Positions 7,855 through 58,713 are shown, numbered from the stretch's first letter. The stretch is DNA of 64,000 nt from a bacterium (GCA_965216315.1 CBDCFN010000015.1:1-64000), one strand, 5' to 3'. Translations and numbers: made by a program. Notes: generated by a model from the letters alone, not told the origin.

Positions 7855-7882
7855 GCAACTCGGCGCAACTCCCTTCGATAAG
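7855..7882 (+). promoter_or_regulatory. CAAC-N16-CGAT alternative-sigma promoter motif
   Basis: GCAAC-tcggcgcaactccctt-CGATAAG. Confidence 0.6.
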
Positions 7883-7914
7883 ACATGCTGCGATAGAGAG
7901 AACAGGAGTCTCTC

Positions 7915-8754
7915 ATGGCAATCCCCATCTCAGCCCCATATCACCCGACGACTTTTCATGACACGCCCATCAAAGCCGCGATGGTTCCGGCGGCCGCCGT
8001 CTCGGACCCGAGTGACGCACTCTTTAGCGAGATACGCAGCCTCTTTAACAACGAAGCGGTCTACGCCGAATGGCTTGGCATGGTCAGCGGCAAAATTACC
8101 TTGGCGCAACTGCGACACTATCGCGATGCCCTGAAAAAAATTCGCGACTTCGTCGGAGCCGATGTCCTCGCGATCATTCTCACGACTCCCTTTGCGGGCA
8201 AGAAAAAGAACATCTCCGTCTTTACCACGAAACACCTCGGCACCGGACGGGGCGATTGGCCCGAGAGCAAGGCCTTTCATGGCTTTGTTCTCGACGATGC
8301 GTCGGCCGATAGTTTTAAAGGGGCCATCTGGGATCGTGGCAACGATTATGGAAAAGGTAAAATCGAAGCACCGTTCGTCAGTTGTTCCAAGGTCACACCA
8401 ATCACAGCGACGCGCGTACACCAGCAAATTGTTTTCGACATCCCCTGGCCCGCTTCCAACAAGATGACTTTAAACGACACGACCTTACAACGGCATGGCG
8501 GCATCGGGTGGGAGGTCAGTTGGACACTGATCAAAGACACTACAATTAAATGGGCCTGCCTCGACGCTGAAGGCACGACCTTTCTCTACAACAAAGGGCA
8601 CTGGCGTCTGTTGCCGATCGGCCCTAAGAAAACCCTGCTCTGGTACGCCACCGAGTCCGACGTCACCGGACTGGACGCTCCTTCTTGGGAAGCCACGAAG
8701 GCCCTGCGCGGCAACATCAAGGCCTTTTCCGAGGCCGCTCATGGGCGGCGATAG
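7915..8754 (+). CDS. Hypothetical protein with a C-terminal START/SRPBCC-like domain
   Basis: AGGAG RBS; NKGHWRLLPIGPKKTLLWY..ESD pattern typical of polyketide-cyclase/START folds. Confidence 0.6.
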   Translation: MAIPISAPYHPTTFHDTPIKAAMVPAAAVSDPSDALFSEIRSLFNNEAVYAEWLGMVSGKITLAQLRHYRDALKKIRDFVGADVLAIILTTPFAGKKKNISVFTTKHLGTGRGDWPESKAFHGFVLDDASADSFKGAIWDRGNDYGKGKIEAPFVSCSKVTPITATRVHQQIVFDIPWPASNKMTLNDTTLQRHGGIGWEVSWTLIKDTTIKWACLDAEGTTFLYNKGHWRLLPIGPKKTLLWYATESDVTGLDAPSWEATKALRGNIKAFSEAAHGRR

Positions 8755-8777
8755 TTGATATTTAAGGAGACACGACA

Positions 8778-10043
8778 ATGATCACAGCACTGACATTCAA
8801 TGCATCCACCTGTTTACTCGCCTCCGCCAAATTTTCGGCCCCGGATGCCGACTGGCTCCGCGAGGCCTATCAAGGCCGCTTTCCGGTCGCGAGCCCCGAC
8901 ACCTATTCCAGTGAAATCATCGAGTCCGTCCTCGGCACGCCGAGCCAGTTACCCAAGTTTCACTTAGCACTCCTGGAGGCGTTCGCCACGGCACCTGATC
9001 CGGGCAGCCGAAATCAATTTTTCAACGCCCATGCCATCCAACATGTCTTCACCGACAATGCACAAGCAAGAAGTTGGGGCGGGCTTGAAAACGTGCTCCT
9101 CCAAGGACTCATCGTCCTCGCCCTGACAGATTCGGCTCAGCCGCTTCAAGCCCTCCATAGTATCTTTGAAGCAATGCGCCATGGTTTGTCACAGGCCGCG
9201 CTGGCCAAGGTCATCGGTGACACGCCCTTTCTTGAGGAGATCCGCAACAAACGAGATGAGTTACCAACTTATCAATATCTCCAAAGATTAGCGCGCCACG
9301 GCTATGCCCATGAACAGCTCGCCAAACAGATCAACGGAACTCGATATACCGCTTATATTAATGACATGAGACTCGCCCGCAAGGTCGTCTCCGTCTGCGC
9401 TGATATGGAGTTGTGCATCAAAGAACCTCATCGACGTACTTGGGCCAGTAATCTCTTAGGTGATGCCATCAAGAAACTAGTGCGTTTGGAGCGCACCCTC
9501 GGCGTTGAGGAACTTTTTGTTCTCCTGCAAATTGTTCCCAATCCTCACATCCGAGCCATCCGAGAGAGCTGGCAAGAGCGTCAATTTAATATTGAAATCC
9601 TCAGTCCAACGGAATTCGACGCGCTTGTCGCCGGATGGGACGGCCCACCGGTTAAATACAGCCTCTTCATTCAAGGCGGCGTGACCCAACGCGACCGCAT
9701 CATCATCCGCCAACTTCCGCCGCTAAGCCTCGAAAGCTACGCGGCGGAGCAAGAAGCCTTTCAAGAAATAACGATGCGGCTAGTCGGACTTGTCCACGAA
9801 GCGGAACACTGGCGCCACACTTCAGGTCATTATCAGTGGGACGAAGCGGCATCGGAGCCGATCGATCTCGACGGCATCAGCTATCATGATCGCATGGTCT
9901 CGGAATTGATGGCGGACTTTGAAGAATATCGCTGGCGCGTGCGGCATCTCGACAACATGCCTTACGAATTGGCGCGACGCACGGGCCAAACGCTGGCCCT
10001 TCATTTTAGGGGACTGCATGAAATCGCTTACAGAGTCAGATGA
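8778..10043 (+). CDS. Hypothetical protein with an HExxH zincin-like motif
   Basis: AAGGAG RBS; LVHEAEHWRH followed by a distal SE..A..EE. Confidence 0.6.
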   Translation: MITALTFNASTCLLASAKFSAPDADWLREAYQGRFPVASPDTYSSEIIESVLGTPSQLPKFHLALLEAFATAPDPGSRNQFFNAHAIQHVFTDNAQARSWGGLENVLLQGLIVLALTDSAQPLQALHSIFEAMRHGLSQAALAKVIGDTPFLEEIRNKRDELPTYQYLQRLARHGYAHEQLAKQINGTRYTAYINDMRLARKVVSVCADMELCIKEPHRRTWASNLLGDAIKKLVRLERTLGVEELFVLLQIVPNPHIRAIRESWQERQFNIEILSPTEFDALVAGWDGPPVKYSLFIQGGVTQRDRIIIRQLPPLSLESYAAEQEAFQEITMRLVGLVHEAEHWRHTSGHYQWDEAASEPIDLDGISYHDRMVSELMADFEEYRWRVRHLDNMPYELARRTGQTLALHFRGLHEIAYRVR

Positions 10044-10074
10044 CGACCACTTTCTAGGTTCAAACTATTGATTA

Positions 10075-12284: not shown

Positions 12285-12345
12285 GTGTCCTTCAACTTTG
12301 ATTCCCGTCCAGTAGTTCCTTCAAAAAATCCTCTTTCACTTGGGA

Positions 12346-12557: not shown

Positions 12558-12574
12558 AGCAAGAGCCCTGCCAA
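12558..12574 (-). promoter_or_regulatory. Sigma54 -24/-12 promoter
   Basis: TTGGCAGGGCTCTTGCT; divergent from the kinase/sigma54-activator operon. Confidence 0.75.
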
Positions 12575-17465: not shown

Positions 17466-18155
17466 TTGAAACTATTGAGAATCAGCAGCCTATTCCTGAC
17501 GATCCTGCTCCTGACCGGCCAGAGTCAGTGTGGCTCGAGTTCGGGACTGACCTCGGCTCCAGCCACGGAGACGGAAATATCTGACAGTGAAAGTAGCGAT
17601 ACTGTCAGCACGGTCGCTGATTCGGCCACGACACCCAATCCCGTTACCGAAGAAGTGAGCGCGGCGGATCCGAATCCGACCTGGAGTCCGTCGAGCGCGG
17701 GCAGCATCGGTTGCGCCGAAGCCACCTTGGTCGCATGGGTCTCACTCGACAATAATGCCACGCTAGAGCAGGAATTTTTCTCTTTCGAAGTCAGAGCTCG
17801 GGAGATCGGTGCCAAAAGTAAGTATCTCTTGCTCGAGACCCATGAGCTACAGACTCATAACCTCCGTTATACCCCGCTCGATGCAACGCTCTGGAAGGTA
17901 CAGATAGGGATCACTTCATCGACACCCTCACCGCCGCTCGTCGTTTCAATGGACGGCTCCTCTACCAATCCTCAAGAAGAATGGTGCGATGACCTTCATA
18001 CGACCATCGAGCAAAAAGAATTCATGCTCATTGGTCGCTATGTACGCCCTCGAATGTCTTGGGAAAAGAGAGCCGCTCCGCTTACCTTTGATGCAATCAC
18101 GGGTGAGAATAGTACCGTTGAAATCAATCCCTTTATCCTCGAAGCGCGGGAATAG
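17466..18155 (+). CDS. Hypothetical exported or lipoprotein-like protein
   Basis: GGAGG RBS, TTG start, hydrophobic leader ending ...GQSQC, Ser/Thr-rich linker. Confidence 0.6.
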   Translation: MKLLRISSLFLTILLLTGQSQCGSSSGLTSAPATETEISDSESSDTVSTVADSATTPNPVTEEVSAADPNPTWSPSSAGSIGCAEATLVAWVSLDNNATLEQEFFSFEVRAREIGAKSKYLLLETHELQTHNLRYTPLDATLWKVQIGITSSTPSPPLVVSMDGSSTNPQEEWCDDLHTTIEQKEFMLIGRYVRPRMSWEKRAAPLTFDAITGENSTVEINPFILEARE

Positions 18156-24382: not shown

Positions 24383-25651
24383 ATGCTGGCCACTGCCCTG
24401 TCATCAAGCCTTACGGCGCCGCTGCTGCTCGCGAACGCGGTGGCGCCTCGTCTCAACCGAGAGCTCTGTTCCCCGGCCGAATTCCTAATGCCGGCCTTTG
24501 AACACTGGGCCCAGCGGCCTGGTCCGTTCATCAGCAGCCTCGAGGATGTCGCCCGCTTTTCGCAGGCCCGCCTCTTTCTCCAGGCCGCAGCGGACTTGCC
24601 CTACGTTGACCGATCTAAACAGGCGCAGTATCAGAGGAGTATCGCCAATATCCGTGAGCAGCTCTATCAGGATTGCGTCGACGTCGTCATGCAACCGGCA
24701 GCCTCCCCGTCTGCCGGACCGCTCCTCAATCTCGTTCATATCTGGCGCGACCGAGGTGTTGGGATCGAAGATGTCTACTTGGCGACCTATCAGGATAGCC
24801 GAGAATTCCGCCTGCCTCTGAATTCCAGTCGCCGCGCTATTCGAAAACTTGTTACTCAACTTCAGCAAGATAGCATCGTAAAAACGATCGCACATCGTGA
24901 TCCTCATCTCTTTGCGGCCTTCGACTTCAATGCTAAAATTATCGATCAACGCATCAAAGCACGCGAAACAACGAAAGACAAACAGGCACGTAGTTTTTCC
25001 GCTGGTGCCGGTGTCTCCATGATGTGGATGCCGCCCCTGCGTTGGTTACTATGGGACATGCTCAAAGACGCGGTCACCGGGCCGTTTCGCGCTAAACCCC
25101 CGTTCACGGCGGAAACCGCTCCGGCATCGCGTTTGGCCGAAGCCATCAATGCCCTCTCCTATCGAGCGAGCCGACCCTGGCTGGATCTTCACTTCGGCGT
25201 GCGGGTGGATTTATCTGCGTTGGCAACCCGTCTGTCAGGTAACTTATTGTTCGACGTGGATCTCAGAACAAACACAAAGGTAGCGCGGCGATCTGCCAAT
25301 ACCGCCTCGCTGTTATTCCCGCCCCTCGTTGCCAAGGACATCAAAGACCCGACGCTCAACGCGGTTAAGAGCATGTTACACTCTCTCCAAAAGGGAGGCA
25401 TGGGTGTCATCGTCTCGGAAAATCCCACGACGATTCAAAGCGCCATCACTTATCTAGAATCCAAGCCGCGGCAGGTCGCACGCATTCGTTATAGCCGGGT
25501 CCCTTTATCCGGTACTCAACTGGATGCCCGCGGCATTCACCCCCCCATGCTGACCCGCGGGGCCCTATCCCTCTATCCCGACGACTACCAGAGTCGACTC
25601 CCCTATGGGACCTTTCAATGGGGCTACCCGCTCCTCTTCGAGCGGCGCTAG
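24383..25651 (+). CDS. Orphan protein with a degenerate class I methyltransferase-like C-terminus
   Basis: C-terminal SLLFPP...LQKGGMGVIV..YL resembles 58716-59657; motif I degenerate (WLDLHFG). Confidence 0.6.
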   Translation: MLATALSSSLTAPLLLANAVAPRLNRELCSPAEFLMPAFEHWAQRPGPFISSLEDVARFSQARLFLQAAADLPYVDRSKQAQYQRSIANIREQLYQDCVDVVMQPAASPSAGPLLNLVHIWRDRGVGIEDVYLATYQDSREFRLPLNSSRRAIRKLVTQLQQDSIVKTIAHRDPHLFAAFDFNAKIIDQRIKARETTKDKQARSFSAGAGVSMMWMPPLRWLLWDMLKDAVTGPFRAKPPFTAETAPASRLAEAINALSYRASRPWLDLHFGVRVDLSALATRLSGNLLFDVDLRTNTKVARRSANTASLLFPPLVAKDIKDPTLNAVKSMLHSLQKGGMGVIVSENPTTIQSAITYLESKPRQVARIRYSRVPLSGTQLDARGIHPPMLTRGALSLYPDDYQSRLPYGTFQWGYPLLFERR

Positions 25652-29139: not shown

Positions 29140-29937
29140 ATGGAAACAAAACTTTGGCAGATTACTCGCGGAGAAGGACCCCTACTCGCAACATCCATTC
29201 ATAGTGGACATGAACTCCGTCCCGAACTGGCCTCCCTCTGTGCCCTCGATGAAGCAACACAACTGAGGGAAGAAGATCCTTATACGGATTTCTTAACCAC
29301 CGTCGCACCTAATCGCGTAGTCCCGCACCGTTCGCGCTTTGAAGTCGATTTAAATCGTTCACGCGATCAAGCCGTCTACCGCCGTCCGGAGGATGCCTGG
29401 GGCTTACAGGTCTGGAAACAGGATCTTACCGAAGAAACCGCCCAACGTTCCCTGGCTTACTATGATAGCTTCTATCAGGAGCTGGAAAAGATCCTGTCGG
29501 AGCTAAATACTCGTTATTCAAAATTTGTTGTGTTCGATCTCCATTCCTACAATCATCGGCGGGGAGGCCCTGATGCAGCGCCTGAAGAACCGGCCAAAAA
29601 TCCGGAAATCAATGTGGGAACCGGGACAATGAACCGAACCTACTGGGCGCCGCTTGTGGATCGTTTTATCTCCGAACTTCGAGACTATAATTTTTTGGGA
29701 CGACACTTGGATGTCCGTGAAAATGTTAAATTTCGAGGGCGCCAACTGGCCCAATGGACACACGAAAATTTCCCTACCTCCGGCTGTTGCCTCGCCCTCG
29801 AATTTAAAAAATTCTGGATGGATGAATGGACAGGAGAACCCGATCAAGCGCAATTGGAAGCACTGCATGCAGCATTACTCCAAACAGTGCCAGGGATTCT
29901 GGAAGAGCTCGGTTGCAATGAAACCAATAAATCTTGA
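29140..29937 (+). CDS. N-formylglutamate amidohydrolase family protein
   Basis: SIHSGH, REEDPYTD, SRF.VDLNR, DLHSYN, EFKK; start placed at ATG 29140. Confidence 0.88.
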   Translation: METKLWQITRGEGPLLATSIHSGHELRPELASLCALDEATQLREEDPYTDFLTTVAPNRVVPHRSRFEVDLNRSRDQAVYRRPEDAWGLQVWKQDLTEETAQRSLAYYDSFYQELEKILSELNTRYSKFVVFDLHSYNHRRGGPDAAPEEPAKNPEINVGTGTMNRTYWAPLVDRFISELRDYNFLGRHLDVRENVKFRGRQLAQWTHENFPTSGCCLALEFKKFWMDEWTGEPDQAQLEALHAALLQTVPGILEELGCNETNKS

Positions 29938-32877: not shown

Positions 32878-32881
32878 GTGC

Positions 32882-34222: not shown

Positions 34223-34695
34223 AAAAAATTCTACCGCTATTAATAGTTGCCTTGTTCTTACCAAGCATTTCTATTGCCGATCAGCATCGCAAACTGCGCA
34301 TCGGTCGCATAGAGAAGATTACTTTGCCGAAACATAACATTTCCTTTGAAGGGCGTATTGATACCGGAGCCCATACCTGCTCTATACATGTAACCAACGC
34401 AAAAATAACCAAAGTCGGAAAAATTAAATATATTGAATTCGATACCGAAGACCGCAATGGGAATAAATATCACATCAAAACTAAGGTTCATAAAGAATCT
34501 CACATCAAGAAAACAGATGGTGAAGCTGACGCACGCTATGTGATACGTGAACTCGTTCAGCTTGGGAATATTACCAAAGAAGTTAATATTAATTTGAATG
34601 ATAGAAGCAAACTGAAGTATAACTTTTTGGTAGGACGTAATTTCTTGCGGGGCGATTTTGTCGTCGATGTTTCTCTCTCTCATACCGTAGAATAA
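34219..34695 (+). CDS. RimK-associated retropepsin-like protease (putative ATP-dependent zinc protease family)
   Basis: Signal peptide, IG..E, IDTGA..S, R.......L.GR.FL. Confidence 0.85.
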   Translation: MKKILPLLIVALFLPSISIADQHRKLRIGRIEKITLPKHNISFEGRIDTGAHTCSIHVTNAKITKVGKIKYIEFDTEDRNGNKYHIKTKVHKESHIKKTDGEADARYVIRELVQLGNITKEVNINLNDRSKLKYNFLVGRNFLRGDFVVDVSLSHTVE

Positions 34696-34708
34696 GAAAG
34701 ATATCACG

Positions 34709-36280: not shown

Positions 36281-37212
36281 CCTTTGGCGCACTCCATTCA
36301 CTTGGCGTTCTCGGCATCAATGCCCGCATCGGGCACTACATGAATCGCTACAATCCAAGAAAATATTATCCGTTTGTTGATGACAAAATCAAAACAAGCG
36401 CATTGGCTGAACAGCACGAAATCAAAATTCCGAAAACTTACCATATTTTTGATTCTTACGGGGAATTACGCAACCTGAGTGAAATTCTCAAACCCTATGA
36501 AGCCTTCGTGATCAAACCTGCTAAAGGCGCCATGGGACATGGAATCGTTGTCATCGACAGAGTCGATAAGGAACTATTTATCAAACCAAGTGGCAAACAA
36601 ATGACGCTTCAACAGCTTCGCGATCATATCTCACAAATTATGAGCGGATTATACTCATTAAGTGGCACACCCGATGAGGCTATCATCCAATATAAAGTCA
36701 AACTTCATCCAGCCTTTCACTCGTATACGTATCAGGGAATTCCGGATGTTCGCGTGATTGTTTACCGAGGATATCCGGTAATGGCGATGACGCGGCTACC
36801 CACTCGAGAGTCCGATGGTCGCGCAAACCTGCATCAAGGTTCCATCGGCGCAGGGCTAAACATGACTAGCGGTAAAGTAACTTATGCTATTCACCACAAT
36901 CATTTTATTCATCACCACCCTGATACCAGCCACACGCTAGATGGGCTTGAGATCCCCTACTGGCAGGAAATCCTCATTACAGCGGCGCGTTGTTACGACA
37001 TAGTCCACATGGGCTACTTGGGTGTCGATATTGTCGTTGATGAAATTTATGGTTCATTAATGCTCGAAATGAATGCGCGCCCGGGCCTGTCCATTCAGGT
37101 AGCCAACCGTAAGGGACTTAAAAAAATATTGAATAACTTTGAGAAAATGATCACCCGGCAACTACCGGCGGAAGAACGGGTTAAACTTGCATTGTCACAA
37201 TTTCAGGGCTAA
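36277..37212 (+). CDS. Alpha-L-glutamate ligase-like ATP-grasp protein
   Basis: LG.N.R...Y..RYN.R..YP.VDDK, KPA.G..G.GI, SDGRANLHQG, LE.NARPGL.IQ.AN. Confidence 0.9.
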   Translation: MTFGALHSLGVLGINARIGHYMNRYNPRKYYPFVDDKIKTSALAEQHEIKIPKTYHIFDSYGELRNLSEILKPYEAFVIKPAKGAMGHGIVVIDRVDKELFIKPSGKQMTLQQLRDHISQIMSGLYSLSGTPDEAIIQYKVKLHPAFHSYTYQGIPDVRVIVYRGYPVMAMTRLPTRESDGRANLHQGSIGAGLNMTSGKVTYAIHHNHFIHHHPDTSHTLDGLEIPYWQEILITAARCYDIVHMGYLGVDIVVDEIYGSLMLEMNARPGLSIQVANRKGLKKILNNFEKMITRQLPAEERVKLALSQFQG

Positions 37213-43735: not shown

Positions 43736-44782
43736 TTAGTTGAGTAGTTTCAGTTCCGAAGGGATCGTAAACGTGAGGTTGTATTTGGTTTCCAGCTGAT
43801 TGCCGGCCACATCCCGTGCCGCCCGTTCTTGAATTCCACTACCGGTATTTCCTCCATTTGAAAACTTGAGCCCGAGTACATTCAAGGTATAGGTCGTCCC
43901 AGGCTTAAGCGGATCCTTTACCGCAAAGAAAATACGCTTGGGATACTTTTCGCCGTTATTCCAAACGCCGATCGTTGCCGCGATAGGAAAGGGCCACGGC
44001 ACAGCATGTAGCTGAATCGATTTCTCACGTTGGATAAAATCGAGGTCCATCGGCTCGCTGAATTCCACCGCAAAAAGCCGGTAATCGGGGGTATGATCCA
44101 CCTTCACGACTTTCGGCGCGCTGTTATCAATGGCCTTTACCGTAAAGACAAAATCATCTTTCATCTGCTGGCTACGGTCCATATTCTCGGTCCCTGCCAG
44201 GACTCGGATTTCATACTGACAATCGTGTCGGCGTGGAGACACGTTAAACCACACGAAAGACCCCAGGCCAAGGTAGCGATCCAGGGAATCGATGCTCACT
44301 TGATGCGAACAATCAAGCGCCTTAACTTGGATCTGTCCTTCGAGCGCCCTCACGTCGACGTGCTCTGAGAACTTGAGAATGACTCGATCGGATACCCAAC
44401 TTTCACTCACTTTTGGGTAGTCTCTCTCAACACTAAACGGTTTGACTTCTTCAATATCGGCCGGCTCCTCCGTCTCTTCTTCAAGCGTATGTTCTTCAGC
44501 AATGGGCCGTTCCGACTGCTTCTCTTTTTCAAGTTCCTCAGCAAGCGCCTTCTTTTCTTCTTCCAGCACCTTGAGTTCCTCTTCCATTTTTTTGATTTTT
44601 TCCAGAGTACTTTCGTCAAACTGACTTCCGGAATCAGAAGTCGGATCTTCGATAGGGATCTCTGAAACAATATCTGGAGATTCAGGAATTGTCTGATCGA
44701 TTGAACCACCCTGTTCACAGCCAAAACTGACTAAAGCCATCGCGAACAGTGCGGTTAAAGAAATGATACGTTGCTTAAACAT
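43736..44782 (-). CDS. Lipoprotein with coiled coil and Ig-like (SbsA/Big_5) domains
   Basis: Lipobox SFGC; FSE.MD, L.PGT.Y.L, D.AGN.L motifs; AAGGAGG RBS. Confidence 0.75.
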   Translation of the reverse strand: MFKQRIISLTALFAMALVSFGCEQGGSIDQTIPESPDIVSEIPIEDPTSDSGSQFDESTLEKIKKMEEELKVLEEEKKALAEELEKEKQSERPIAEEHTLEEETEEPADIEEVKPFSVERDYPKVSESWVSDRVILKFSEHVDVRALEGQIQVKALDCSHQVSIDSLDRYLGLGSFVWFNVSPRRHDCQYEIRVLAGTENMDRSQQMKDDFVFTVKAIDNSAPKVVKVDHTPDYRLFAVEFSEPMDLDFIQREKSIQLHAVPWPFPIAATIGVWNNGEKYPKRIFFAVKDPLKPGTTYTLNVLGLKFSNGGNTGSGIQERAARDVAGNQLETKYNLTFTIPSELKLLN

Positions 44783-44952
44783 GGTCCGTGCCTCCTTCCC
44801 ACCAAGGGGATACAAATGACTCTATATAGGCGCGAGAAATCACTCGCGCTAAAACTGTGGGGGGCTACACAGAACAGTTTAGATTAGCTTATGGGGAGTT
44901 ATCGGAGGCGCCGCGCCAACAAGTTGCGTGTTCAGTTAAATTGCAACATTTT

Positions 44953-45751: not shown

Positions 45752-48013
45752 TCACCCACTATTTTTGGACTTGTACTCGTCGATCAAGAGACGCAGTTTG
45801 CCGGCAAGATCATCGATTCTCCAAGGCTTGACTAGAAATCCCGTCTGCTTATCCTCGGCCAAGGTAAAGTTGGAATCACCTGTCTGAAGAATCACGGGCA
45901 GGGTGGGGTGCATTTCTCGAAGAGTCCTGATTAAGGCATCACCACTCAGACGTGGCATCGTCCGATCCGTAATGACAGCAGCTAAATCCTGTCCCCGCTG
46001 CTCAATGATTTCAAGTGCTTCCTGCCCATCTTTTGCAAGCAGCACTTCGGTATATTTATACTCTTTTAAGGCCATTTCTATGCCCATCCGATTAATCGCA
46101 TCATCATCGACAACCAGCACGCTTTCCTTTCCCGGACTATCGAATACAAACGAAGCCTCTCCCATTATCGGTAAATAGATATCAAAACGGACCCCGCGGT
46201 CCGGTAGATTATGAGCCTCAACGAAACCATTGCGATCTGCAACTATTTGAGCAACCGTATGCAAACCGACTCCCCGCCCGACTTTCCCTTTCTTGGTCGA
46301 GTTATTTTTTTCAAAAATACTGTGGAGCATATGGTCAGGTATATGCGGTCCGTTGTTGGCAATACTCAAGCGCATGTAAGGTCCCGGTTTCACGGTATGC
46401 GGTAAATAACGGCCTTGACGCAATTGTCTCGTTGTCAACCAAACGTTATTCGTTTGAACATTAATGGTGCGGTCAGCAAGAGACATTTCCGCCATCGCCT
46501 CGACCGCATTGTTTAATAGAACACTGATAATTTGCGTGATGGGAAAGCGGGGCCCCTCCACCGACAAACGTGCCGCCGCAAAGCGCACTTTCAATTGTGC
46601 TTCGCGACCAAACAGCATGCTTAAGCGTCTGGGATTAAAGAGCGGATAGGGATCAATCGGCCCCCGCACGACTGTATCCGAGGCCCCCCTAAAATAATTG
46701 ATCGCCTCTTTCATTTCGTCCATGATTTCCATGACGAGTTCGATTGCACTGCGCGACTTTCCATAGAGACTATTGCCTCGCAACATGAGGCCCAAATAGC
46801 CCATCACTCCGGTTAGTTGATTGTTCAAATCATGGGCAATTCCACCCGCCAGCCGCCGTCGCACGGCATCTTCAGTCCTTTGCACCCGTTGCGCGGTTAA
46901 TTCATAGACAACAATTGCATACGTTTTACCGTTAATGGTACTGGCGCGGGCACTAATATCAATATGCGTTTCTGTTCCATCGGCCCGTTTCATCGGTGCA
47001 TCGAGCCATTCCAACTCGCCGGTATTCAAAAATAACTTAATATGTTGCTGCAATTCATGGTGATGCTTCTCATCGATGACATCAAGCACGCCTATCTCGC
47101 GCATACCATCGCCATCTGTAGGATAGCCCAGCATCTTGGCAAAAGCGGAACTACTTAGCACTCGCTCGGTACTTCCGTCTTTGTGCACCTCGATAACACT
47201 CAACGGAATACCTGAAATTCTAAACATCGTCTCAAGATCTTGAGTCAGTTGTTGCGCTAAAACCCGCTGGGTCACGTTAATTAATTCATAGTAAATGTAG
47301 GGACTTCTCTCTATCCTGCCAACTTCAACATCGACCCACATGTAATACTCATGTCCGTATTTAATCTTGACCGGAGCACTTTCATTTACTTTGAGACGAA
47401 CTCCTTTGAGAAAACCTTTTCCTGTCGAAACAACGCTCTGAATCAATTCACCGAATTTCAGCACATCGTCGGGATGATAGTTGTCCGCAAAATTTATTGT
47501 CAGGAGATGCGTCCGTGAAAAACCGGACACAGTTTCATTCGCCGTATTTAATAAGAGAAGGTTCAAACCTCCTCCGTCCATCTTAATAATACCAGCCGGA
47601 TTCGTGAAAGATTCAATCATGCCATTATAATGAACGAGTGCCGGATCTTCGCCGACCAAAGACAAACCGGCCGGCAGATAGTCAGGCGATAGCGGAGATA
47701 ATTGTCGCTCGGCCCAAGTTAACTTCTGGTTCAATATCGGATCAAGATCTGGCTTGATGCTGCGAAGTTCATGAATGCAATCCAGTAATGCTCGAGATAC
47801 TTCAATACGTTCTACGGACTCGGCATGTGAGCGGACTTGAAGGGCTTGGATGGGGGCAATGATGCGTTGGAGTTCAAGGCTCTCTATTTGGGTAAGGCGG
47901 GGAGCCATAAAATCGGCCAGCACATGCTGCGGCGCGACATTCGCCTGAAGACCCGCCGTAGACGATACGACTGTCCCGACCAATTGTGAAAACTGCAACG
48001 CGTAAGTCACCAT
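45752..48013 (-). CDS. Hybrid PAS-histidine kinase-receiver with an orphan N-terminal extension
   Basis: Two PAS-like segments, AHDLNN H-box, NNAVEAM N-box, GRGVGL, REC with D..MP and KP. Confidence 0.85.
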   Translation of the reverse strand: MVTYALQFSQLVGTVVSSTAGLQANVAPQHVLADFMAPRLTQIESLELQRIIAPIQALQVRSHAESVERIEVSRALLDCIHELRSIKPDLDPILNQKLTWAERQLSPLSPDYLPAGLSLVGEDPALVHYNGMIESFTNPAGIIKMDGGGLNLLLLNTANETVSGFSRTHLLTINFADNYHPDDVLKFGELIQSVVSTGKGFLKGVRLKVNESAPVKIKYGHEYYMWVDVEVGRIERSPYIYYELINVTQRVLAQQLTQDLETMFRISGIPLSVIEVHKDGSTERVLSSSAFAKMLGYPTDGDGMREIGVLDVIDEKHHHELQQHIKLFLNTGELEWLDAPMKRADGTETHIDISARASTINGKTYAIVVYELTAQRVQRTEDAVRRRLAGGIAHDLNNQLTGVMGYLGLMLRGNSLYGKSRSAIELVMEIMDEMKEAINYFRGASDTVVRGPIDPYPLFNPRRLSMLFGREAQLKVRFAAARLSVEGPRFPITQIISVLLNNAVEAMAEMSLADRTINVQTNNVWLTTRQLRQGRYLPHTVKPGPYMRLSIANNGPHIPDHMLHSIFEKNNSTKKGKVGRGVGLHTVAQIVADRNGFVEAHNLPDRGVRFDIYLPIMGEASFVFDSPGKESVLVVDDDAINRMGIEMALKEYKYTEVLLAKDGQEALEIIEQRGQDLAAVITDRTMPRLSGDALIRTLREMHPTLPVILQTGDSNFTLAEDKQTGFLVKPWRIDDLAGKLRLLIDEYKSKNSG

Positions 48014-48034: not shown

Positions 48035-48063
48035 TTCATCGCCACTTAGCGCGTAATGTTGTG
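48035..48063 (-). promoter_or_regulatory. CAAC-N16-CGAT promoter motif
   Basis: ACAAC-attacgcgctaagtgg-CGATGAA on the minus strand. Confidence 0.65.
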
Positions 48064-48076: not shown

Positions 48077-48886
48077 TTATCCGGCGTAAGCCTGGCGAAG
48101 AATCATCATCAAGCGCAGATGCTGGGCTATTTCCCTTCCAAGAATGGGCTTCATCACCCTCCAGGTCTGATGATCTTCCGGAACAATATTTTCTTCCCGG
48201 CCAGTAATAACCAGGATAGGGAGATCCGGGCGCCGTTGGCGAAGCTCCCTGACTAATTCATCGCCACTCATAAGTGGCATATTGAAGTCGGTAATAATGG
48301 CCGTTAAGCGATCTAAGTTTGATTCGGCCAACTGTAATCCTTCTTGACCATTCGACGCTGTCATAATTTCCTCAAACTTAAAGGGACTCATGCCTCGGAT
48401 AATAGCCCGATGAAGTATGGCCATGTCATCGACATACATGAGAACTTCGCCACCGGGACTCTGCGGATCGACAACCTTGACGACGGATTCCGCTAAGTGG
48501 CTTGTCATCTTGAAGTGAATCCCGGCATCCCATAAGAGTCGAATCGATTCTTTGATGGCCGTCGCCCCCGCCTCACCGTAGTCTTCCGCAAAAGATGATC
48601 CTTGAAAGACAGTAAGAACACTGCACAGCACGTTGATAACCGACGACTCGATAGCCAGCTTCGCTTCCAACAACCGAACCTGGGCTACTGGCTTAGCAAA
48701 AAGTTGAAGCAGGGACCCGACATCATTGCGAAGTGGCTCCTCCAGTTGAGACAACCCTAGAGCCGATTGAAATTGATGCACGGCCGGAGCGATATTCTTC
48801 TGAGAGATTGGTGGTACTTGCAAGGCGGCCGCAGCCGTATTGAGGCCGAGGGCGACCTGTTGAAAAAGCGTAGCATTGACCGTCAT
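48077..48886 (-). CDS. Receiver-domain protein with an orphan N-terminal extension
   Basis: VDD, ITDFNMP..SG, ITG, KP; start ATG 48886 (longer ORF overlaps tadA). Confidence 0.8.
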   Translation of the reverse strand: MTVNATLFQQVALGLNTAAAALQVPPISQKNIAPAVHQFQSALGLSQLEEPLRNDVGSLLQLFAKPVAQVRLLEAKLAIESSVINVLCSVLTVFQGSSFAEDYGEAGATAIKESIRLLWDAGIHFKMTSHLAESVVKVVDPQSPGGEVLMYVDDMAILHRAIIRGMSPFKFEEIMTASNGQEGLQLAESNLDRLTAIITDFNMPLMSGDELVRELRQRRPDLPILVITGREENIVPEDHQTWRVMKPILGREIAQHLRLMMILRQAYAG

Positions 48887-51036: not shown

Positions 51037-51888
51037 ATGGTAATGAATCCTTGTCTATATTCAGCTACTTTGTTGCCCGCTTGTACGGCACTCAGTTCCC
51101 AAGTCACAGTATCTTGTTTGAGTGACACTGGTATCACTTCTGCAAATAGTAACCACCTCAGCTTGTCGCGAAATGCTGCACAGGAACTGATCGACTATTC
51201 ACATCGCATTATTGCAGGACCTTTCCCCCGACTTAACTCCGTAAAACTGCTTAACGATTTAAATAAAATCGGTGAATCACGGGACTATGATGCCGGTTTT
51301 GTTGGCGCATTGATGTATCTCTGCAGTCCTGAAGCCATCAACAAGCTGACCTTATTGGGAAGCACACTCGTAGCCCACCAGGACCTCTACGCTGATACTA
51401 CTGTTCAAGAGCTGCGCCATCGCGCGATTCGACAAATCTTAGTCCGCGCGCCCACAGCTGGAAGCTTTATATTTGTAAAGTTATCTGATTCATTAGACCG
51501 TGAAACGTACGCCCATCAGCAGGCGCATGAATTTGCGAAGAGATCTCTCGAGCAATTCCCTATTGGTCTCGACGACGTTGAAGACCCAATTATCGTCATG
51601 ACACCAGACATCCAAACCGTCATAATCGGGAGAAGCCCTGACACGGACCTAACGCTTTCAAACCTTCACGTTTCGAGTGTTCACGCCCGGATCGATCAAG
51701 ACGAAGTCGGCAACTACTACTTAATCGATATGGGCTCGGCGAACGGAACATACTTCAAAGGTCATCGACTGGCGACAAATGAAGGGGTAAAAATCAAACC
51801 TGGAGAGTTTTTTCATATTGCCAATGTTCGTGTTCAATTCACTGAAGCGACTACCCCACCTCATCATACGGCCTCAATCGAAACTTAA
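51037..51888 (+). CDS. FHA-domain protein with an orphan N-terminal region
   Basis: IGR, VSS.HA, D.GS.NGT FHA motifs. Confidence 0.8.
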   Translation: MVMNPCLYSATLLPACTALSSQVTVSCLSDTGITSANSNHLSLSRNAAQELIDYSHRIIAGPFPRLNSVKLLNDLNKIGESRDYDAGFVGALMYLCSPEAINKLTLLGSTLVAHQDLYADTTVQELRHRAIRQILVRAPTAGSFIFVKLSDSLDRETYAHQQAHEFAKRSLEQFPIGLDDVEDPIIVMTPDIQTVIIGRSPDTDLTLSNLHVSSVHARIDQDEVGNYYLIDMGSANGTYFKGHRLATNEGVKIKPGEFFHIANVRVQFTEATTPPHHTASIET

Positions 51889-54748: not shown

Positions 54749-54794
54749 AAGTATTGTACTTCCATCCGAATTAAGTAAATAAACTCTCCCTTAC

Positions 54795-54881
54795 GGAGAG
54801 GTGGCCGAGTGGTTGAAGGCGCCGGTCTCGAAAACCGGTGTGCCCTTCGGGGTACCGAGGGTTCGAATCCCTCCCTCTCCG
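54795..54881 (+). tRNA. tRNA-Ser (CGA)
   Basis: GGAGAGGTGGCCGAGTGG...CCGGT-CTCGAAA-ACCGG, long variable arm, GGTTCGAATCC. Confidence 0.95.
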
Positions 54882-54906
54882 CAGTTATTGTCGTAAATTT
54901 TGAGAA

Positions 54907-54934
54907 GCAACTTCTGGGAATGCGCGCCGATGAA
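54907..54934 (+). promoter_or_regulatory. CAAC-N16-CGAT promoter motif, leaderless
   Basis: GCAAC-ttctgggaatgcgcgc-CGATGAAG; ATG 54941 lies 9 nt after CGAT. Confidence 0.7.
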
Positions 54935-54940
54935 GGGCCC

Positions 54941-55855
54941 ATGTTAGGTGCTGTGTCCTCCACTCAATTACTGAGTACCGCTTTGCCCGCAATGGTTCTG
55001 GCCTCCGGTCCGTCTACGTTAGGACCCTTTGATGGCTTTGCACCGGTCCAATTAGGCCAGGCCTTTCAACCAGCACAGGGCTCAACGCGGCTCTTCGAAT
55101 CACAGCCCGCGGCACAAGTATCTTTTCAAGGCCCGGAGCCGACAACCCAAACCGACGTCGCCTCTGCAGGCTTAGGCCTTGGTCTCGCATTGATTGTCGG
55201 CGGTGCCTTAACGGCCGCCTACTTAGTCACTCGTTTCCTCAAAGCAGATCCTCAACCCGCTGAAAAGACCTTGAGCGCGGCGGAAACCCTCGATAAATTT
55301 TTTAAGCTCATGGAAGGAAAGCATCAAGGGGAGCCCATCCGCATGCACATTGACTCCAAAGAAATAGGACTCGAAGCCCTCCGCATCTGGGCGGCCTGCG
55401 CGGGGGTAATGCCAGAAGAGGAACAATATGCAATCACCCTTGGAGCCCTCCAGCTCTTTGAGATGCCACCTGAATATTATCTCATGGCCAACCGGCCGGA
55501 TAAGAGCCGGTACTACGCTCATATCGCACGCAGTCAGATACAAACAGATGATGTCGCCGATCTGTTCCCCGACGTAATCGACTTGATTGAAATTAATTTT
55601 CGCAACGCCAACATGGTCCCTGCTGGAACCCAGATCATCAGTCCTCAAGGAGTCGCGACGGCCGATGTTCGTGATGACCGCTTTGTCATCCGCTTTGAAC
55701 CGCGCTCCAACGTTAAGATTAATATCCACGAGATGATCGACCGTTTACGCGAAAACTATGGACGTATCACCCCGTCCCGGTACCACTTAGATATCTATTT
55801 CGAATATGCATCAGGTGAAATGATTAAGATTTTCGATGCTAATCGGGTGGCTTGA
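54941..55855 (+). CDS. Orphan protein with one internal TM helix
   Basis: Start ATG 54941 (longer ORF overlaps tRNA-Ser); GLGLGLALIVGGAL helix. Confidence 0.7.
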   Translation: MLGAVSSTQLLSTALPAMVLASGPSTLGPFDGFAPVQLGQAFQPAQGSTRLFESQPAAQVSFQGPEPTTQTDVASAGLGLGLALIVGGALTAAYLVTRFLKADPQPAEKTLSAAETLDKFFKLMEGKHQGEPIRMHIDSKEIGLEALRIWAACAGVMPEEEQYAITLGALQLFEMPPEYYLMANRPDKSRYYAHIARSQIQTDDVADLFPDVIDLIEINFRNANMVPAGTQIISPQGVATADVRDDRFVIRFEPRSNVKINIHEMIDRLRENYGRITPSRYHLDIYFEYASGEMIKIFDANRVA

Positions 55856-55891
55856 CGCAGTCGCTCAACGAAAATTCGCAAGCAATACCCC

Positions 55892-55917
55892 ACAACTTAA
55901 GCCCTCAAGAACCGAAG
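55892..55917 (+). promoter_or_regulatory. CAAC-N16-CGAA promoter motif variant
   Basis: ACAAC-ttaagccctcaagaac-CGAAG. Confidence 0.45.
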
Positions 55918-55957
55918 CATAATTCAGTGCGCATAGAGAGAAAGTGAGGATAACCTC

Positions 55958-56452
55958 ATGGGAGAAGGCGCACGTATTGAGGGTGTTCACCTTAACGCCG
56001 GAATCGGCGCGGGATACACCTTAAGGCCTGGACTAAGCGGTGAAGAAAATCGATTGAGCCTGGATGGAGCCGTCGTCGCCAACTTTGACACCTATGTGTC
56101 TGACTGGCGCAGCTTTCGTTGGATCGCCGGAGTCACCGGCGGTTATGAATATCAACCGCAATCAGGACCGGGTTTTGATGAAGGATCCGGGGACGCATTC
56201 CACATCGGTGGCATGCTTGGAACCTATTTTGGCGCATACGGCCCTGTGTTCTATCTCGGCGGAGATATCAATCCAAGAGCTACCTGGTTTACCGGCAATG
56301 ATTCCCCCCAGTTTGAGCTAGGGCTCAATTTGCGAGCCATCGCCACACTAGGCAACTTTAATGCTAGTTTGAGTGTTGGCGCTATTCTGAACACGGCGGA
56401 CGCAAGTCGCAGCGGTTTTCAGGCCAGTCTCGCCGCCCTGCTCTACTTGTAG
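55958..56452 (+). CDS. Beta-strand-rich (beta-barrel-like) protein without a Sec signal
   Basis: GAGGA RBS; alternating Gly/aromatic strands; ends LLYL. Confidence 0.6.
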   Translation: MGEGARIEGVHLNAGIGAGYTLRPGLSGEENRLSLDGAVVANFDTYVSDWRSFRWIAGVTGGYEYQPQSGPGFDEGSGDAFHIGGMLGTYFGAYGPVFYLGGDINPRATWFTGNDSPQFELGLNLRAIATLGNFNASLSVGAILNTADASRSGFQASLAALLYL

Positions 56453-56464
56453 TGAGGAGGCCCA

Positions 56465-57184
56465 ATGGGCGATGCGGACCGCGATCGACTACTATTCGCG
56501 GCCGGCGGCTGCGCTTCCGGTTTTTTATGGAGCGTCCTCGCCGGTGAAGCGGATCTAGGTACAGGCGAAGGCTGGGGCCGCGCATTGATGGGATGCGCGG
56601 GCAGCGCTGCCAATGCCTTCACCTTGCATTGGATTACCGACCAGTTCACGACCAACGACGACATACCTAACATCGTCGCCGGGAGCTGGCTGGGAGCACA
56701 ATCCCTCGCCAGTATGACCAACTGGATCGGCCACGAACAAGGCTGGGAACGTGAACCGGCCTTTAATGCCGTCGCCATCCCGCTCAATTTCGCGGCCGCC
56801 CCTGCGTTTTCCAGCCTCGGACTCGTGTGGGCCGGTATCGGTGAAATTGCGACCGGATTTACCGGCGACGTGTCCGCTTTCGGAGGCATGTTGATCTTTG
56901 ATCACAACCTCTGTTTGAGTGCGATGAATACCGGCGCCATTGGCCATTGCTTTAATGCCAGTAGTGACTATTTACCAAGACACGAACAGGGTCACCAGGT
57001 TCAGTTTTCCATCATGGGCGATGTCGGCATGCTGACAATCGGAACCACTGATTTCTTAGTCGGGACAATTGGAACCCTCCCTTCGACCTACGGCGCCTAT
57101 ATCTTTGTCGCGGGTCCCGGTGCGTTGACGCTCGAGCCTTGGGCCAACGATTATGCCGGGACATTTAATTTAAGCAGTCCCTAA
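56465..57184 (+). CDS. Hydrophobic hypothetical protein with an HExGH motif
   Basis: GAGGAGG RBS; RHEQGHQVQ....G and E.WA pattern of zincin-like domains. Confidence 0.6.
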   Translation: MGDADRDRLLFAAGGCASGFLWSVLAGEADLGTGEGWGRALMGCAGSAANAFTLHWITDQFTTNDDIPNIVAGSWLGAQSLASMTNWIGHEQGWEREPAFNAVAIPLNFAAAPAFSSLGLVWAGIGEIATGFTGDVSAFGGMLIFDHNLCLSAMNTGAIGHCFNASSDYLPRHEQGHQVQFSIMGDVGMLTIGTTDFLVGTIGTLPSTYGAYIFVAGPGALTLEPWANDYAGTFNLSSP

Positions 57185-57192
57185 TAATCATT

Positions 57193-57229
57193 AAATCCCT
57201 CCTAGCCTCCCTTTACAAAGGGGGATTTT
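57193..57229. repeat. REP-like element (CCCTTTACAAAGGG family)
   Basis: AAATCCCTCCTAGCCTCCCTTTACAAAGGGGGATTT; similar to 21131-21175. Confidence 0.7.
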
Positions 57230-57255
57230 TCGGAATTTTTCGAAAGGATGGCCTC

Positions 57256-57283
57256 ACAACGAAGCCCGAAAAACCGCGATAAG
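57256..57283 (+). promoter_or_regulatory. CAAC-N16-CGAT promoter motif, leaderless
   Basis: ACAAC-gaagcccgaaaaaccg-CGATAAG; ATG 57289 lies 8 nt after CGAT. Confidence 0.7.
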
Positions 57284-57288
57284 CGGGC

Positions 57289-58713
57289 ATGATCCCTCTT
57301 CAGGCCACATCTGCCCTAAGTCCGACGCTACTGGCAGCAAGTTCATTGATCCCCTACGCGGGCCTTGCGGACACCGCGCGCCTCGTGGCGAACCCACAAC
57401 GCGAACGAGACTTACCCGTCGCGGCATCTTTGACCGCGCACGTTGTGTCGCGGGGCCTGAATGCGGCCCTGCCCACGGTCATTCGCGGGGCTCGACGCTT
57501 CCTCAGGGCGCGGGAAACGACAATCCATCCATCACAGCAGGTCGTTTTACTCAGTGGGAGTCAAACAAGAGCCAGCGCGCAGCTGCGCCGTGAGCTCTCA
57601 CAAAACTATCCGCGCGCACAGTTTACCAACCCCTTGATTCAACAAGCCCTTGACCTGGTTGCGTCCGGACGTCTGGGAGAATTATTCAGCTTGGTCGCTC
57701 AACAACGCCCTTACCTCATTGATTTCCAGCGGCCCATGCTCAGCAAGATTCTCCAGCATGTTGCCACTCACTTTCCTGAGGTATCCGGTCGCGAGGTCCT
57801 CGCACCTAATTTTCTCAGTAGCGACAAAGCAATGCGAGCCGAAGATATCTTCCGCCCCGACATGTTCGATAAAGTCAATTCGCGCGGGTTGGTCGCGTGC
57901 AGTGAACATTTATTTGAACGCGAACCGGCCCACAAGTTTGGTGTCGCGATACAGCCCGAAGACACGACGCTCTGGCGTATGATTGGCCGTCTTCCCCAAG
58001 GAGCCGTTGTCGCCGACTGGGGCGGCGGCATTGGAATCGCCGCGTTGCTCGCCAAGCTCATGCGTCCGGATTTAGAGGTCTACGTCAATGACCTCCACGC
58101 CCCCGAGGTCCTCATGGCACATGCGATGGCACTGGCGGCCACACGTGCTGAGTTGAGTCAGATCACCCGCTACACCGTCGGTGATCCCGATGTTGCCTTG
58201 GACCGAAATGGCCGACTGCAGCATGCCTTTGAGTTTCCGCTTACGGCCGCGCAGTTACACTCAAAATTGCACTACCTGACGGGAGATGCCGGTCGCATCA
58301 GGCTACCTGAGGGTAAGCAAGCCAACCTGATGATTTCGGCCTCGTTAAGCCCGTACGTTCCCAATCCACTGGGGCTGTTTCTCCACATGTATGATCAGTT
58401 AGCTCCGGGCGGCATCGTCGCCAGCACGGTAACGACCGAAATTCTTAATGCGAGCCAAGACTGGACGACGGATAAATCCGTGATCAGTGAATTTTCCGCG
58501 GAACTGGCGCGTCAGGGAATCCCCGTCGAAATGACCCCCAATAAAATGACACTCGTTGTCCAACGACCCGATGCAAGTCGGCTGCGTTTGACGGCGGAAT
58601 TTCTTGAGTCTTCGCTCGGTTCGGTTCGCCTCCCTATGTCTCCTTTCATGAATCGCTACACGAGTTTTTACCGCCCAAACGAAGGGCAACGGCGCTGGGT
58701 GGAACGGGAGTAA
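57289..58713 (+). CDS. Class I SAM-dependent methyltransferase with an orphan N-terminal half
   Basis: VADWGGGIG, YLTGDA, YVPNP...L.PGG. Confidence 0.75.
   Translation: MIPLQATSALSPTLLAASSLIPYAGLADTARLVANPQRERDLPVAASLTAHVVSRGLNAALPTVIRGARRFLRARETTIHPSQQVVLLSGSQTRASAQLRRELSQNYPRAQFTNPLIQQALDLVASGRLGELFSLVAQQRPYLIDFQRPMLSKILQHVATHFPEVSGREVLAPNFLSSDKAMRAEDIFRPDMFDKVNSRGLVACSEHLFEREPAHKFGVAIQPEDTTLWRMIGRLPQGAVVADWGGGIGIAALLAKLMRPDLEVYVNDLHAPEVLMAHAMALAATRAELSQITRYTVGDPDVALDRNGRLQHAFEFPLTAAQLHSKLHYLTGDAGRIRLPEGKQANLMISASLSPYVPNPLGLFLHMYDQLAPGGIVASTVTTEILNASQDWTTDKSVISEFSAELARQGIPVEMTPNKMTLVVQRPDASRLRLTAEFLESSLGSVRLPMSPFMNRYTSFYRPNEGQRRWVERE

Follow-up and report, generated by a model that had tools for sequence, protein, structure and literature searches.

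Promoter copies in the window and the genes behind them

The window, a stretch of 64,000 nucleotides of bacterial DNA (GCA_965216315.1 CBDCFN010000015.1:1-64000), is the start of contig C15 in an assembly of 2.96 Mb, 16 contigs and 98% completeness. It carries ten copies of a bipartite motif composed of a CAAC-type and a CGATAA-type box, each followed by a gene that is an orphan or bears a known domain fused to a novel N-terminus (Table 1). Overall, the motif is best explained as a promoter read by a single alternative sigma factor belonging to the sigma-28 (FliA/WhiG) class, which would serve about 300-350 promoters in this genome, and this explanation is considered probable.

A preliminary description of the window had listed eight copies with a 16-nt spacer (N16) and two looser ones. 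All eight are found, offset by 1-2 nt, and both looser copies, with spacers of 17 and 18 nt, proved real when scored with half-site matrices. The orphan or orphan-fusion nature claimed for the downstream genes holds in a Pfam scan for ten genes out of ten. Seven have no Pfam family, and three display only a receiver, a histidine kinase plus receiver, or an FHA domain, the known domain sitting in each case behind a novel N-terminus. The five ATG codons said to follow the box closely (24383, 48886, 51037, 54941, and 57289) start 6-8 nt after the -10 hexamer and open long frames. As for the degenerate pattern proposed in that description, it exceeds chance in the window, but weakly, with 27 matches versus 17.5 +/- 4.0 expected, 2 of 100 shuffles reaching 27. 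Thus, the window alone was unable to settle the question.

Table 1. Promoter copies of the window and the genes placed under them (minus-strand copies begin at the higher coordinate).
Feature	Position	Strand	Remarks
Promoter CAAC-N16-CGATAA	7856..7881	+	18.4 bits
Gene driven by the 7856 promoter	7915-8754	+	279 aa, no Pfam, 33-nt leader
Promoter variant AAAC-N17-CGATAA	17402..17428	+	19.0 bits at spacer 17, half-site matrix
Gene driven by the 17402 promoter	17466-18155	+	229 aa, no Pfam, hydrophobic signal-peptide-like N-terminus
Promoter AAAC-N16-CGATAA	24350..24375	+	21.9 bits, start codon 7 nt past hexamer
Orphan gene, probably leaderless	24383..25651	+	422 aa, no Pfam, uncharged N-terminus, first charge at residue 23
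Promoter variant CAAC-N18-CGATAA	44899..44926	-	23.2 bits at spacer 18, half-site matrix
Gene driven by the 44926 promoter	43736-44815	-	no Pfam; lipoprotein-like signal opens at internal Met
Promoter CAAC-N16-CGATGA	48036..48061	-	23.9 bits
Hybrid histidine kinase/receiver gene driven by the 48061 promoter	45752-48013	-	753 aa, 22-nt leader, uncharged N-terminus; Pfam HisKA, HATPase_c, Response_reg
Promoter CAAC-N16-CGAGAA	48895..48920	-	23.6 bits, 8 nt ahead of ATG at 48886
Probably leaderless gene	48077..48886	-	269 aa; first charge at residue 30; Pfam Response_reg, residues 151-233
Promoter CAAC-N16-CGATAA	51004..51029	+	14.4 bits, 7 nt ahead of ATG at 51037
Probably leaderless gene	51037..51888	+	283 aa, uncharged N-terminus, C-terminal Pfam FHA, residues 195-261
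Promoter CAAC-N16-CGATGA, strongest of the window	54908..54933	+	26.6 bits, 7 nt ahead of ATG at 54941
Orphan gene	54941..55855	+	304 aa, no Pfam, N-terminus MLGAVSSTQLLSTALPAMVLASG
Promoter CAAC-N16-CGAAGC, weaker -10	55893..55918	+	15.0 bits
Gene driven by the 55893 promoter	55958-56452	+	164 aa, 39-nt leader, no Pfam family
Promoter CAAC-N16-CGATAA	57257..57282	+	15.8 bits, 6 nt ahead of ATG at 57289
Probably leaderless gene	57289..58713	+	474 aa; disordered uncharged N-terminus, helical domain, then S-adenosylmethionine (SAM)-methyltransferase-like fold

A dispersed promoter distinct from the housekeeping one

At the scale of the genome, the motif stands clearly above background. CAAC-N16-CGATAA occurs 90 times in 2.96 Mb, and for spacers of 10 to 23 nt the counts are 8, 16, 9, 7, 14, 7, 90, 31, 30, 16, 12, 7, 17, and 12. 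The N16 copies are intergenic in 60 of 90 cases versus 1/9 for N12, 1/14 for N14, and 0/12 for N20, the intergenic fraction being the 7% of the genome left by a crude gene call based on open reading frames (ORFs). An iterated weight matrix yields the consensus (C/A)(G/A)CAAC-TTTT-N10-(G)(C)CGA(T)(A)(A), the sequence 5' of the -35 box being rich in A/T. Matrix frequencies are C.88, A 1.00, A.95, and C.98 in the -35 core and (G.55)(C.43) C.94 G.99 A.99 T.67 A.59 A.67 in the -10 element. Against the genome reversed without complementation as a control, this matrix finds 342 sites versus 29 at 14 bits and 264 versus 9 at 16 bits. When the half-sites are scored with free spacing at 15 bits, N16, N17, and N18 give 294, 77, and 63 sites versus control counts of 18, 28, and 24, and the remaining spacings stay near their controls. 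Among the 1025 intergenic regions of 70 nt or more that lie upstream of genes, 191, i.e., about a fifth, contain CAAC-N16-18-CGA, and the predicted regulon would not be small, with its 300-350 promoters.

The two boxes might be read as the operator of a DNA-binding regulator or as a piece of a dispersed repeat. Conservation is however limited to the boxes and the distance between them, spacer and flanks being unconserved, and the sites point toward genes, with start codons at a fixed 5-11 nt and a pyrimidine before the A. As the boxes also match the -35/-10 geometry of sigma-28 promoters and are conserved in 93 genomes (see below), such an origin appears extremely improbable.

A housekeeping role, with the motif as the promoter of the RpoD of this lineage, would fit the fact that it is the most conspicuous promoter-like signal of the genome, found in the 191 upstream regions mentioned above, and that strict TTGACA/TATAAT dyads show no spacing peak genome-wide. 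Within upstream regions, however, a classical promoter has its own peak, as TTGAC-N18-TAnnnT is found 25 times versus 2-8 at other spacings, and only 4 regions harbor both promoter types. Moreover, TTGACA and TATAAT are 3.2-3.6-fold enriched upstream of genes, the rpoH gene is preceded by a perfect TTGACA-N17-TATAAT, and the motif is absent upstream of 45/45 tRNA genes (no site of at least 12 bits within 150 nt). Conserved families are also strongly depleted among the genes that follow the motif. That RpoD reads the motif is therefore very unlikely.

In total, 293 distinct downstream genes were called. Their family content was assessed with a Pfam scan (E<=1e-5) of 170 targets located in the 40 twenty-kb tiles richest in targets; 140 non-target genes were drawn at random from the same tiles as controls, the first 70 being scanned. 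A Pfam hit was obtained for 51/170 targets versus 50/70 controls (Fisher p=4e-9), meaning that 70% versus 29% are without hit. The targets are thus mostly orphans. Taken together, spacing, location, orientation, start-codon statistics, and orphan enrichment support the core proposal of the preliminary description, namely that one alternative sigma factor serves scattered lineage-specific genes, their co-expression being deduced from sequence. Two DUF4423 genes are found among the targets. At C16:686582-688186, two adjacent promoter-bearing ORFs of 149 and 171 aa are identical over their first 24 residues and contain internal repeats, so that they may stem from a recent tandem duplication.

The probable reader of the motif

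The genome encodes RpoD, RpoH, two sigma factors of the extracytoplasmic function (ECF) type, one FliA-like sigma factor, and RpoN. RpoH is identified by 317 bits on TIGR02392 and a score above the PRK06596 cut-off. The FliA-like gene lies at C16:350580-351410, and the best NCBIfam model for its product is FliA_WhiG (TIGR02479). A profile built from 35 orthologs first retrieves 6pfv/6pfj ('RNA polymerase sigma factor'), then FliA (9wsm, 6pmi, 1rp3) and WhiG (7lq4), ahead of other named sigma classes. The consensus of sigma-28 promoters is TAAAGTTT-N11-GCCGATAA. Once rewritten as RCAACTTT-N11-(G)(C)CGATAA, the motif has the same box geometry, and its -10 element corresponds to GCCGATAA, which is plainly displayed by the sites of relatives. 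The FliA-like sigma factor is the most likely reader of the motif.

Conservation was examined in 93 genomes assigned to the same phylum, covering 24 families, whose members are labelled 'Deltaproteobacteria' or UBA10199. CAAC-N16-CGATAA is enriched in 93/93 genomes, with 20-107 copies versus 0-12 for the reversed pattern. The FliA-like sigma factor is found in 91/93 genomes, including 63/63 of the high-quality ones, with 56-84% identity; the two genomes without a match are 73% and 78% complete.

The preliminary description had likened the -10 box to that of sigma-28 and the AAC-N16-CG spacing to ECF promoters, and only the first resemblance has stood, through the -10 box, the geometry, and a sigma factor present phylum-wide. 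An ECF reader would fit the AAC of the -35 and the CG of the -10, 16 nt apart, as this is the usual geometry of ECF promoters in general, and the genome does contain two ECF genes, one of them with GCAACTTTT upstream. However, the box before that gene ends in TCTAA and not in CGATAA, the extended -10 (G)CCGATAA is a sigma-28 signature, and ECF sigma factors are patchy in the phylum, where 53/93 genomes have a match at E<=1e-10. Among 51 genomes at least 95% complete, eight possess only 2-3 sigma-70-family genes (G001, G008, G013, G026, G043, G046, G076, and G077) and nevertheless keep 26-80 motif copies versus 0-3 in the control. Since the motif persists in genomes without any ECF match, an ECF reader is effectively excluded, and its probability is put very low. 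The sequence preceding this ECF gene, the second of the two, is GCAACTTTT-N-TCTAA (C16:2109800-2109921), an RpoE-like box that has the -35 half in common with the studied motif.

The sigma factor may also control itself. An N18 copy of the motif precedes a 151-aa ORF heading the same-strand run that contains the sigma gene, and this layout, again with N18, is also found in G055. Out of 33 loci of relatives with 3 kb upstream, 23 carry a same-strand copy at 0.9-1.6 kb upstream of the sigma match, the spacer being N18 in 21/23, whereas the opposite strands of all 33 loci combined give 16 hits. This recurrence is read as conserved positive autoregulation, which the position of the copies suggests.

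Several points weigh against attributing the motif to a sigma-28-class factor. First, the protein is a divergent member of FliA_WhiG, as its 133.1 bits are below the curated cut-off of 189.6. The -35 core TAAA of sigma-28 is replaced by CAAC, only AA and the following TTT being shared. Flagellin is absent from the 98%-complete genome, so that the classical function of sigma-28, i.e., the expression of flagellar filament and chemotaxis genes, is absent too. No FlgM-like anti-sigma factor is recognized among the small neighboring ORFs, none of which matches a Pfam or NCBIfam model. About 8% of the matrix sites are expected to be false (29/342), and truncated Pfam matches indicate that some of them fall within genes. 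Lastly, the choice of this sigma factor rests on exclusion and analogy. A 162-aa ORF (C16:351407-351895) overlaps the sigma stop codon, and its position is kept in 42/47 loci of relatives with 21-52% identity and no family; its product could be an anti-sigma factor or a part of a type III secretion system. Complex prediction of the sigma factor with this protein scored 0.00 in both runs and gives no verdict on binding.

Flagellin is encoded in only 12/93 genomes of the phylum. A second, weaker FliA-like match occurs in the flagellated G082 and G083 (29-30% identity), on the same contig as the flagellin genes, and in the non-flagellated G084-G086 (31-41%). In 11 flagellated relatives, 8/12 flagellin genes are preceded by AAG(T/C)TT-N-CCGT(T/C) and one by TAAA...GCCGATTA, not by CAAC...CGATAA. 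The two sigma-28 paralogs of flagellated members may thus read distinct boxes.

A sigma gene within a type III secretion cluster

The sigma gene lies between the SctJ gene and those for SctL/N/O/P/Q/R/S/T, in a cluster for a non-flagellar type III secretion system (T3SS). This cluster includes FHIPEP/SctV, two FHA+YscD-type proteins (YscD_cpl), TPR chaperones, YscJ_FliF/SctJ, FliH/SctL, the T3SS ATPase, a YscO-like protein, a FliK/HpaP-type ruler, and FliM-like, FliO, FliP, FliQ/SctS, and SctT (Bac_export_1) proteins. The genome encodes the parts of both the core export apparatus and the sorting platform (SctV, J, L, N, O, P, Q, R, S, T, U, D). A SycD/LcrH-like chaperone (75.6 bits versus a cut-off of 104.8) is encoded farther on, beside promoter-bearing genes of the cluster. 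Five large ORFs after sctT, as well as small ORFs, match no Pfam or NCBIfam family. An FHIPEP (SctV-type) gene is found in 91/93 genomes of the phylum, and 24 genomes, that of the window among them, have it on the same contig as the sigma gene, at a distance of about 10-20 kb.

The promoter, with spacers of N16-N18, stands before six genes of the cluster without family (183, 151, 717, 491, 601, and 298 aa), and the motif would therefore also drive genes inside the cluster that encodes the sigma factor. For the 717-aa protein, adjacent to T3SS genes, the ESM Atlas returns only sub-threshold neighbors at 0.85, among them the NleC and HopF2 effector clusters, which is a lead at most.

Probable leaderless transcripts

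For 112/342 sites, going downstream from the -10 hexamer, the nearest start codon of an ORF with 80 codons or more is reached after 5-11 nt, and 89 of these 112 codons are ATG. From the 20,779 ORF-opening ATGs counted in 5.93 Mb (both strands), chance would yield only about 8. G is frequent between the box and the ATG, and the base preceding the ATG is a pyrimidine in 38/42 sites at 6-7 nt and in 22/29 at 9-10 nt. A pyrimidine before an A is the usual context for transcription start at a purine. For about a third of the sites, these features fit leaderless mRNAs whose first base is the A of the start codon ATG. Thus, the earlier statement that many of the genes are leaderless is kept for that fraction, judging from start-codon positions, but does not extend to the majority of sites.

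A shared uncharged N-terminus

Many targets begin alike. Residues 2-16 are uncharged in 75/106 leaderless targets and 45/166 leadered targets versus 88/2226 other genes. This N-terminus is rich in Ser, Thr, Ala, and Leu, and the first charge comes at a median residue of 29. A LLAS(S/G)-like pentamer near residue 15 is present in 62/126 carriers versus 93/2226 other genes. When all in-frame ATGs of the genome are considered, a promoter lies 5-120 nt upstream for 155/463 signal-like starts versus 442/20,316 others, and promoter and signal-like start are found together for 122 distinct ORFs.

Paralogy was considered as the cause of this similarity and rejected. Without residues 1-35, the 126 carriers form 106 similarity clusters, among which 96 are singletons, i.e., proteins without detectable similarity to other carriers past residue 35. 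As the carrier bodies are unrelated, the N-terminus is a module rather than a remnant of paralogy.

A Pfam hit was obtained for 24 carriers, whose bodies include histidine kinases/receivers, FHA, patatin, diacylglycerol kinase, PFK, RelA/SpoT, and a helicase with sigma region 4, in addition to GGDEF, Ser/Thr kinase, nucleotide cyclase, glycosyltransferase, malic enzyme, RtcB, and acyltransferase. At C16:1632121-1639887, a 2588-aa acetyl-CoA carboxylase combines the promoter and an uncharged N-terminus with a eukaryote-typical central region and a biotin-ligase domain. Most of these bodies need ATP, GTP, NAD(P), or SAM, which argues against a periplasmic fate and fits either delivery into the cytoplasm of another cell or a function inside the producing cell. 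Furthermore, one carrier is encoded directly behind sctT in the T3SS cluster. On the whole, a T3SS export signal is favored. The secretion of type III effectors is directed by their N-terminal 15-25 residues, and in the one model made, that of the 57289 protein, the N-terminus is disordered (residues 1-16, pLDDT, i.e., predicted local distance difference test, below 50). That the uncharged Ser/Thr/Ala/Leu-rich N-terminus of more than 120 targets is such a signal is put at slightly short of an even chance.

Four observations speak against this export step. Promoter-linked signal-like starts amount to 0/48 in G012 and 0/21 in G055 (400-kb samples from two other families) versus 39/77 on C15, although the promoter itself is present in the same samples (35 versus 4 sites in G012, 32 versus 7 in G055). 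The promoter-linked signature occurs solely in the family of the window, whereas the T3SS is phylum-wide. The SctU homolog lies outside the cluster, 450 kb away at C16:805026. No secretin was found in the T3SS cluster, two secretin-family genes being located elsewhere in the genome. Within the family, the relatives G025 and G024 show the leaderless pattern (42 versus 5 and 24 versus 0) with similar N-termini, and in G023, from a sister family of the same order, the promoter-linked N-terminal signature was not found. As the signature is limited to a family and the module is phylum-wide, the module of sigma factor, T3SS, and promoter is taken as old, and the leaderless, signal-bearing repertoire of orphans as a recent family-level expansion.

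Promoter and sigma factor may also hold without the N-terminus serving T3SS export. It might then arise as a by-product of leaderless translation, act as an export signal of an atypical Sec type or of another kind, or mark proteins for localization or turnover inside the cell. The restriction of the signature to one family would agree with this, as would the C/T-rich second codon positions after the ATG and the LLAS(S/G)/LASG ending, which is reminiscent of the small-residue end of cleaved signal peptides or of a lipobox lacking its Cys. However, leadered targets carry the signature too (45/166 versus 4% of other genes), and leaderless translation alone is therefore insufficient. Compared with the Sec-type signals of the same genome, the carrier N-termini are far less hydrophobic (median best 10-mer hydrophobicity of 1.60 versus 2.88), only 4% reaching a membrane-helix score. 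They are also fused to enzymes using cytoplasmic cofactors, to which glutamate dehydrogenase and a SAM-methyltransferase fold can be added (besides the Ser/Thr kinase, GGDEF, RelA/SpoT, PFK, malic enzyme, RtcB, and acetyl-CoA carboxylase cited above), and one carrier lies directly behind sctT. These non-T3SS origins are rather unlikely.

The T3SS export signal, if retained, leads to a broader proposal. The bacterium of the window and its two family relatives would hold more than 120 T3SS substrates recognizable by eye, with an uncharged signal often ending in LLAS(S/G), mostly leaderless, and placed under a T3SS-encoded sigma-28 paralog. This combined proposal is tentative, with roughly one chance in three.

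Individual genes and other features of the window

Behind 7915-8754, the gene 8778-10043, whose product has an uncharged N-terminus of LLASA type, is probably also driven by the 7856 promoter. In a search of 5.8 billion proteins, the sole match of the 24383 protein is itself. Among the same 5.8 billion, the sole match of the 54941 protein is also itself, recorded as a 348-aa form, and the ESM Atlas yielded no usable match for it. The length of 348 aa fits a longer ORF from a GTG at 54809, which would cross the 54908 promoter. A start at the leaderless ATG of 54941, which gives 304 aa, agrees better with the pattern seen across the genome, and automated start calls may often be too long for this class of leaderless genes.

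Downstream, 56465-57184, without Pfam family, is probably driven by the 55893 promoter as well. The 57289 protein has 20 distant relatives among 1.84 billion representatives. Its AlphaFold model has a pLDDT of 84, and the PDB matches listed for it are all methyltransferases or methyltransferase-fold enzymes, mostly solved with SAM or S-adenosylhomocysteine (E ~1e-7, TM 0.2-0.3). The next gene, 58716-59657, likewise encodes an uncharged N-terminus. A tRNA-Ser gene at 54795 stands directly 5' of the 54908 promoter, and five genes without Pfam family follow it in a row (54941, 55958, 56465, 57289, and 58716). The region 54795-59657 may be an island inserted at tRNA-Ser.

Four more matrix hits of 14-15 bits (27738, 39144, 44944, and 63274) lie within or against coding sequence without a convincing downstream gene and are probably chance matches. 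The window also contains a gene of the MATCAP family (microtubule-associated tyrosine carboxypeptidase, PF08014, 297 bits) in the region 29654-37212. On its 3' side are found a glutathione-synthetase/RimK-type ATP-grasp, a transporter, a zinc protease, a 7TM-transglutaminase, and a second ATP-grasp.

Proposed mechanism and significance

The FliA-like sigma factor of the T3SS cluster would read the motif and, being itself behind a copy of the promoter, would raise its own expression. It would drive genes of the cluster without family along with hundreds of genes, for the most part orphans, scattered over the genome. At roughly one site out of three, transcription would begin at the A of the ATG and give a leaderless mRNA. 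More speculatively, the regulon could represent an apparatus-linked 'late' expression of secretion substrates, as for flagellar class 3 genes.

A poorly known candidate phylum thereby gains a readable regulatory code, in which one box marks several hundred genes probably switched on with the T3SS. A sigma-28 paralog appears uncoupled from flagella and kept with a non-flagellar T3SS in 91/93 genomes. The targets provide a testable list of candidate secreted proteins, most of them without known family, and an unusually clean case for leaderless transcription from alternative-sigma promoters. They also draw attention to start codons probably mis-called by automated annotation, the gene at 54941 being an example. 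Should the N-terminus indeed direct export, it would be one of the rare type III signals to have a recognizable consensus. The injection of enzymes such as kinases, nucleotide cyclases, a phospholipase, and metabolic enzymes into another cell would then point to a predatory, parasitic, or symbiotic lifestyle, and an ancient T3SS-plus-sigma module would be the organizing regulator of a whole candidate phylum.

Comparison with known systems

No description of this system was found in the literature searched, and at least 20 of the 27 papers mentioning UBA10199 are metagenomic surveys or works on other subjects. What appears to be new is, on the one hand, a sigma-28 paralog fixed in the cluster of a non-flagellar T3SS throughout a phylum whose members are mostly without flagella and, on the other hand, the combination of a CAAC -35 core, a large leaderless class, and a consensus N-terminus.

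In Escherichia coli and Salmonella, FliA and FlgM govern the flagellar class 3 hierarchy. The sigma family and the GCCGATAA-type -10 are the same here, and the sigma factor is likewise encoded with a type III export apparatus and would drive likely late substrates. Flagellin and a recognizable FlgM are however missing, the targets amount to hundreds instead of a few dozen, and the coupling of sigma factor and secretion is an analogy.

In Pseudomonas syringae and other plant pathogens, the ECF sigma factor HrpL recognizes the hrp box GGAACC-N-CCACNNA. As in the present case, an alternative sigma factor encoded with the T3SS serves apparatus genes and scattered candidate effectors that can be found by their promoter box, but the sigma factor is FliA/WhiG-like here, unlike HrpL.

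The sigma-28 regulon of chlamydiae is small. These bacteria use alternative sigma factors (sigma-28 and sigma-54) for late genes and T3SS effectors, the effectors being tied to sigma-54 (PMC7482065, PMC12282069). They thus also illustrate a non-flagellated bacterium with a T3SS that keeps sigma-28 for a developmental gene set and places effector genes under an alternative sigma factor, whereas a leaderless class and a consensus N-terminal signature are not described for them in the parts of these sources at hand.

Another parallel is the attack-phase FliA regulon of Bdellovibrio bacteriovorus, in which TTAAG-N16-CCGATA was found in 92/140 mapped attack-phase promoters (Karunker et al. 2013, PMC3627812). 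That sigma-28-type promoter reaches far past flagellar genes, to many uncharacterized, surface, or secreted proteins. Both systems share the -10 box, a spacing within 1 nt, and a 'deltaproteobacterial' lineage. In contrast to Bdellovibrio, the bacterium studied here has no flagellin, its sigma factor is a separate paralog within a non-flagellar T3SS cluster, and its -35 core is CAAC. A third of its sites look leaderless, a term absent from the main text of PMC3627812, and its targets have a common N-terminal signature.

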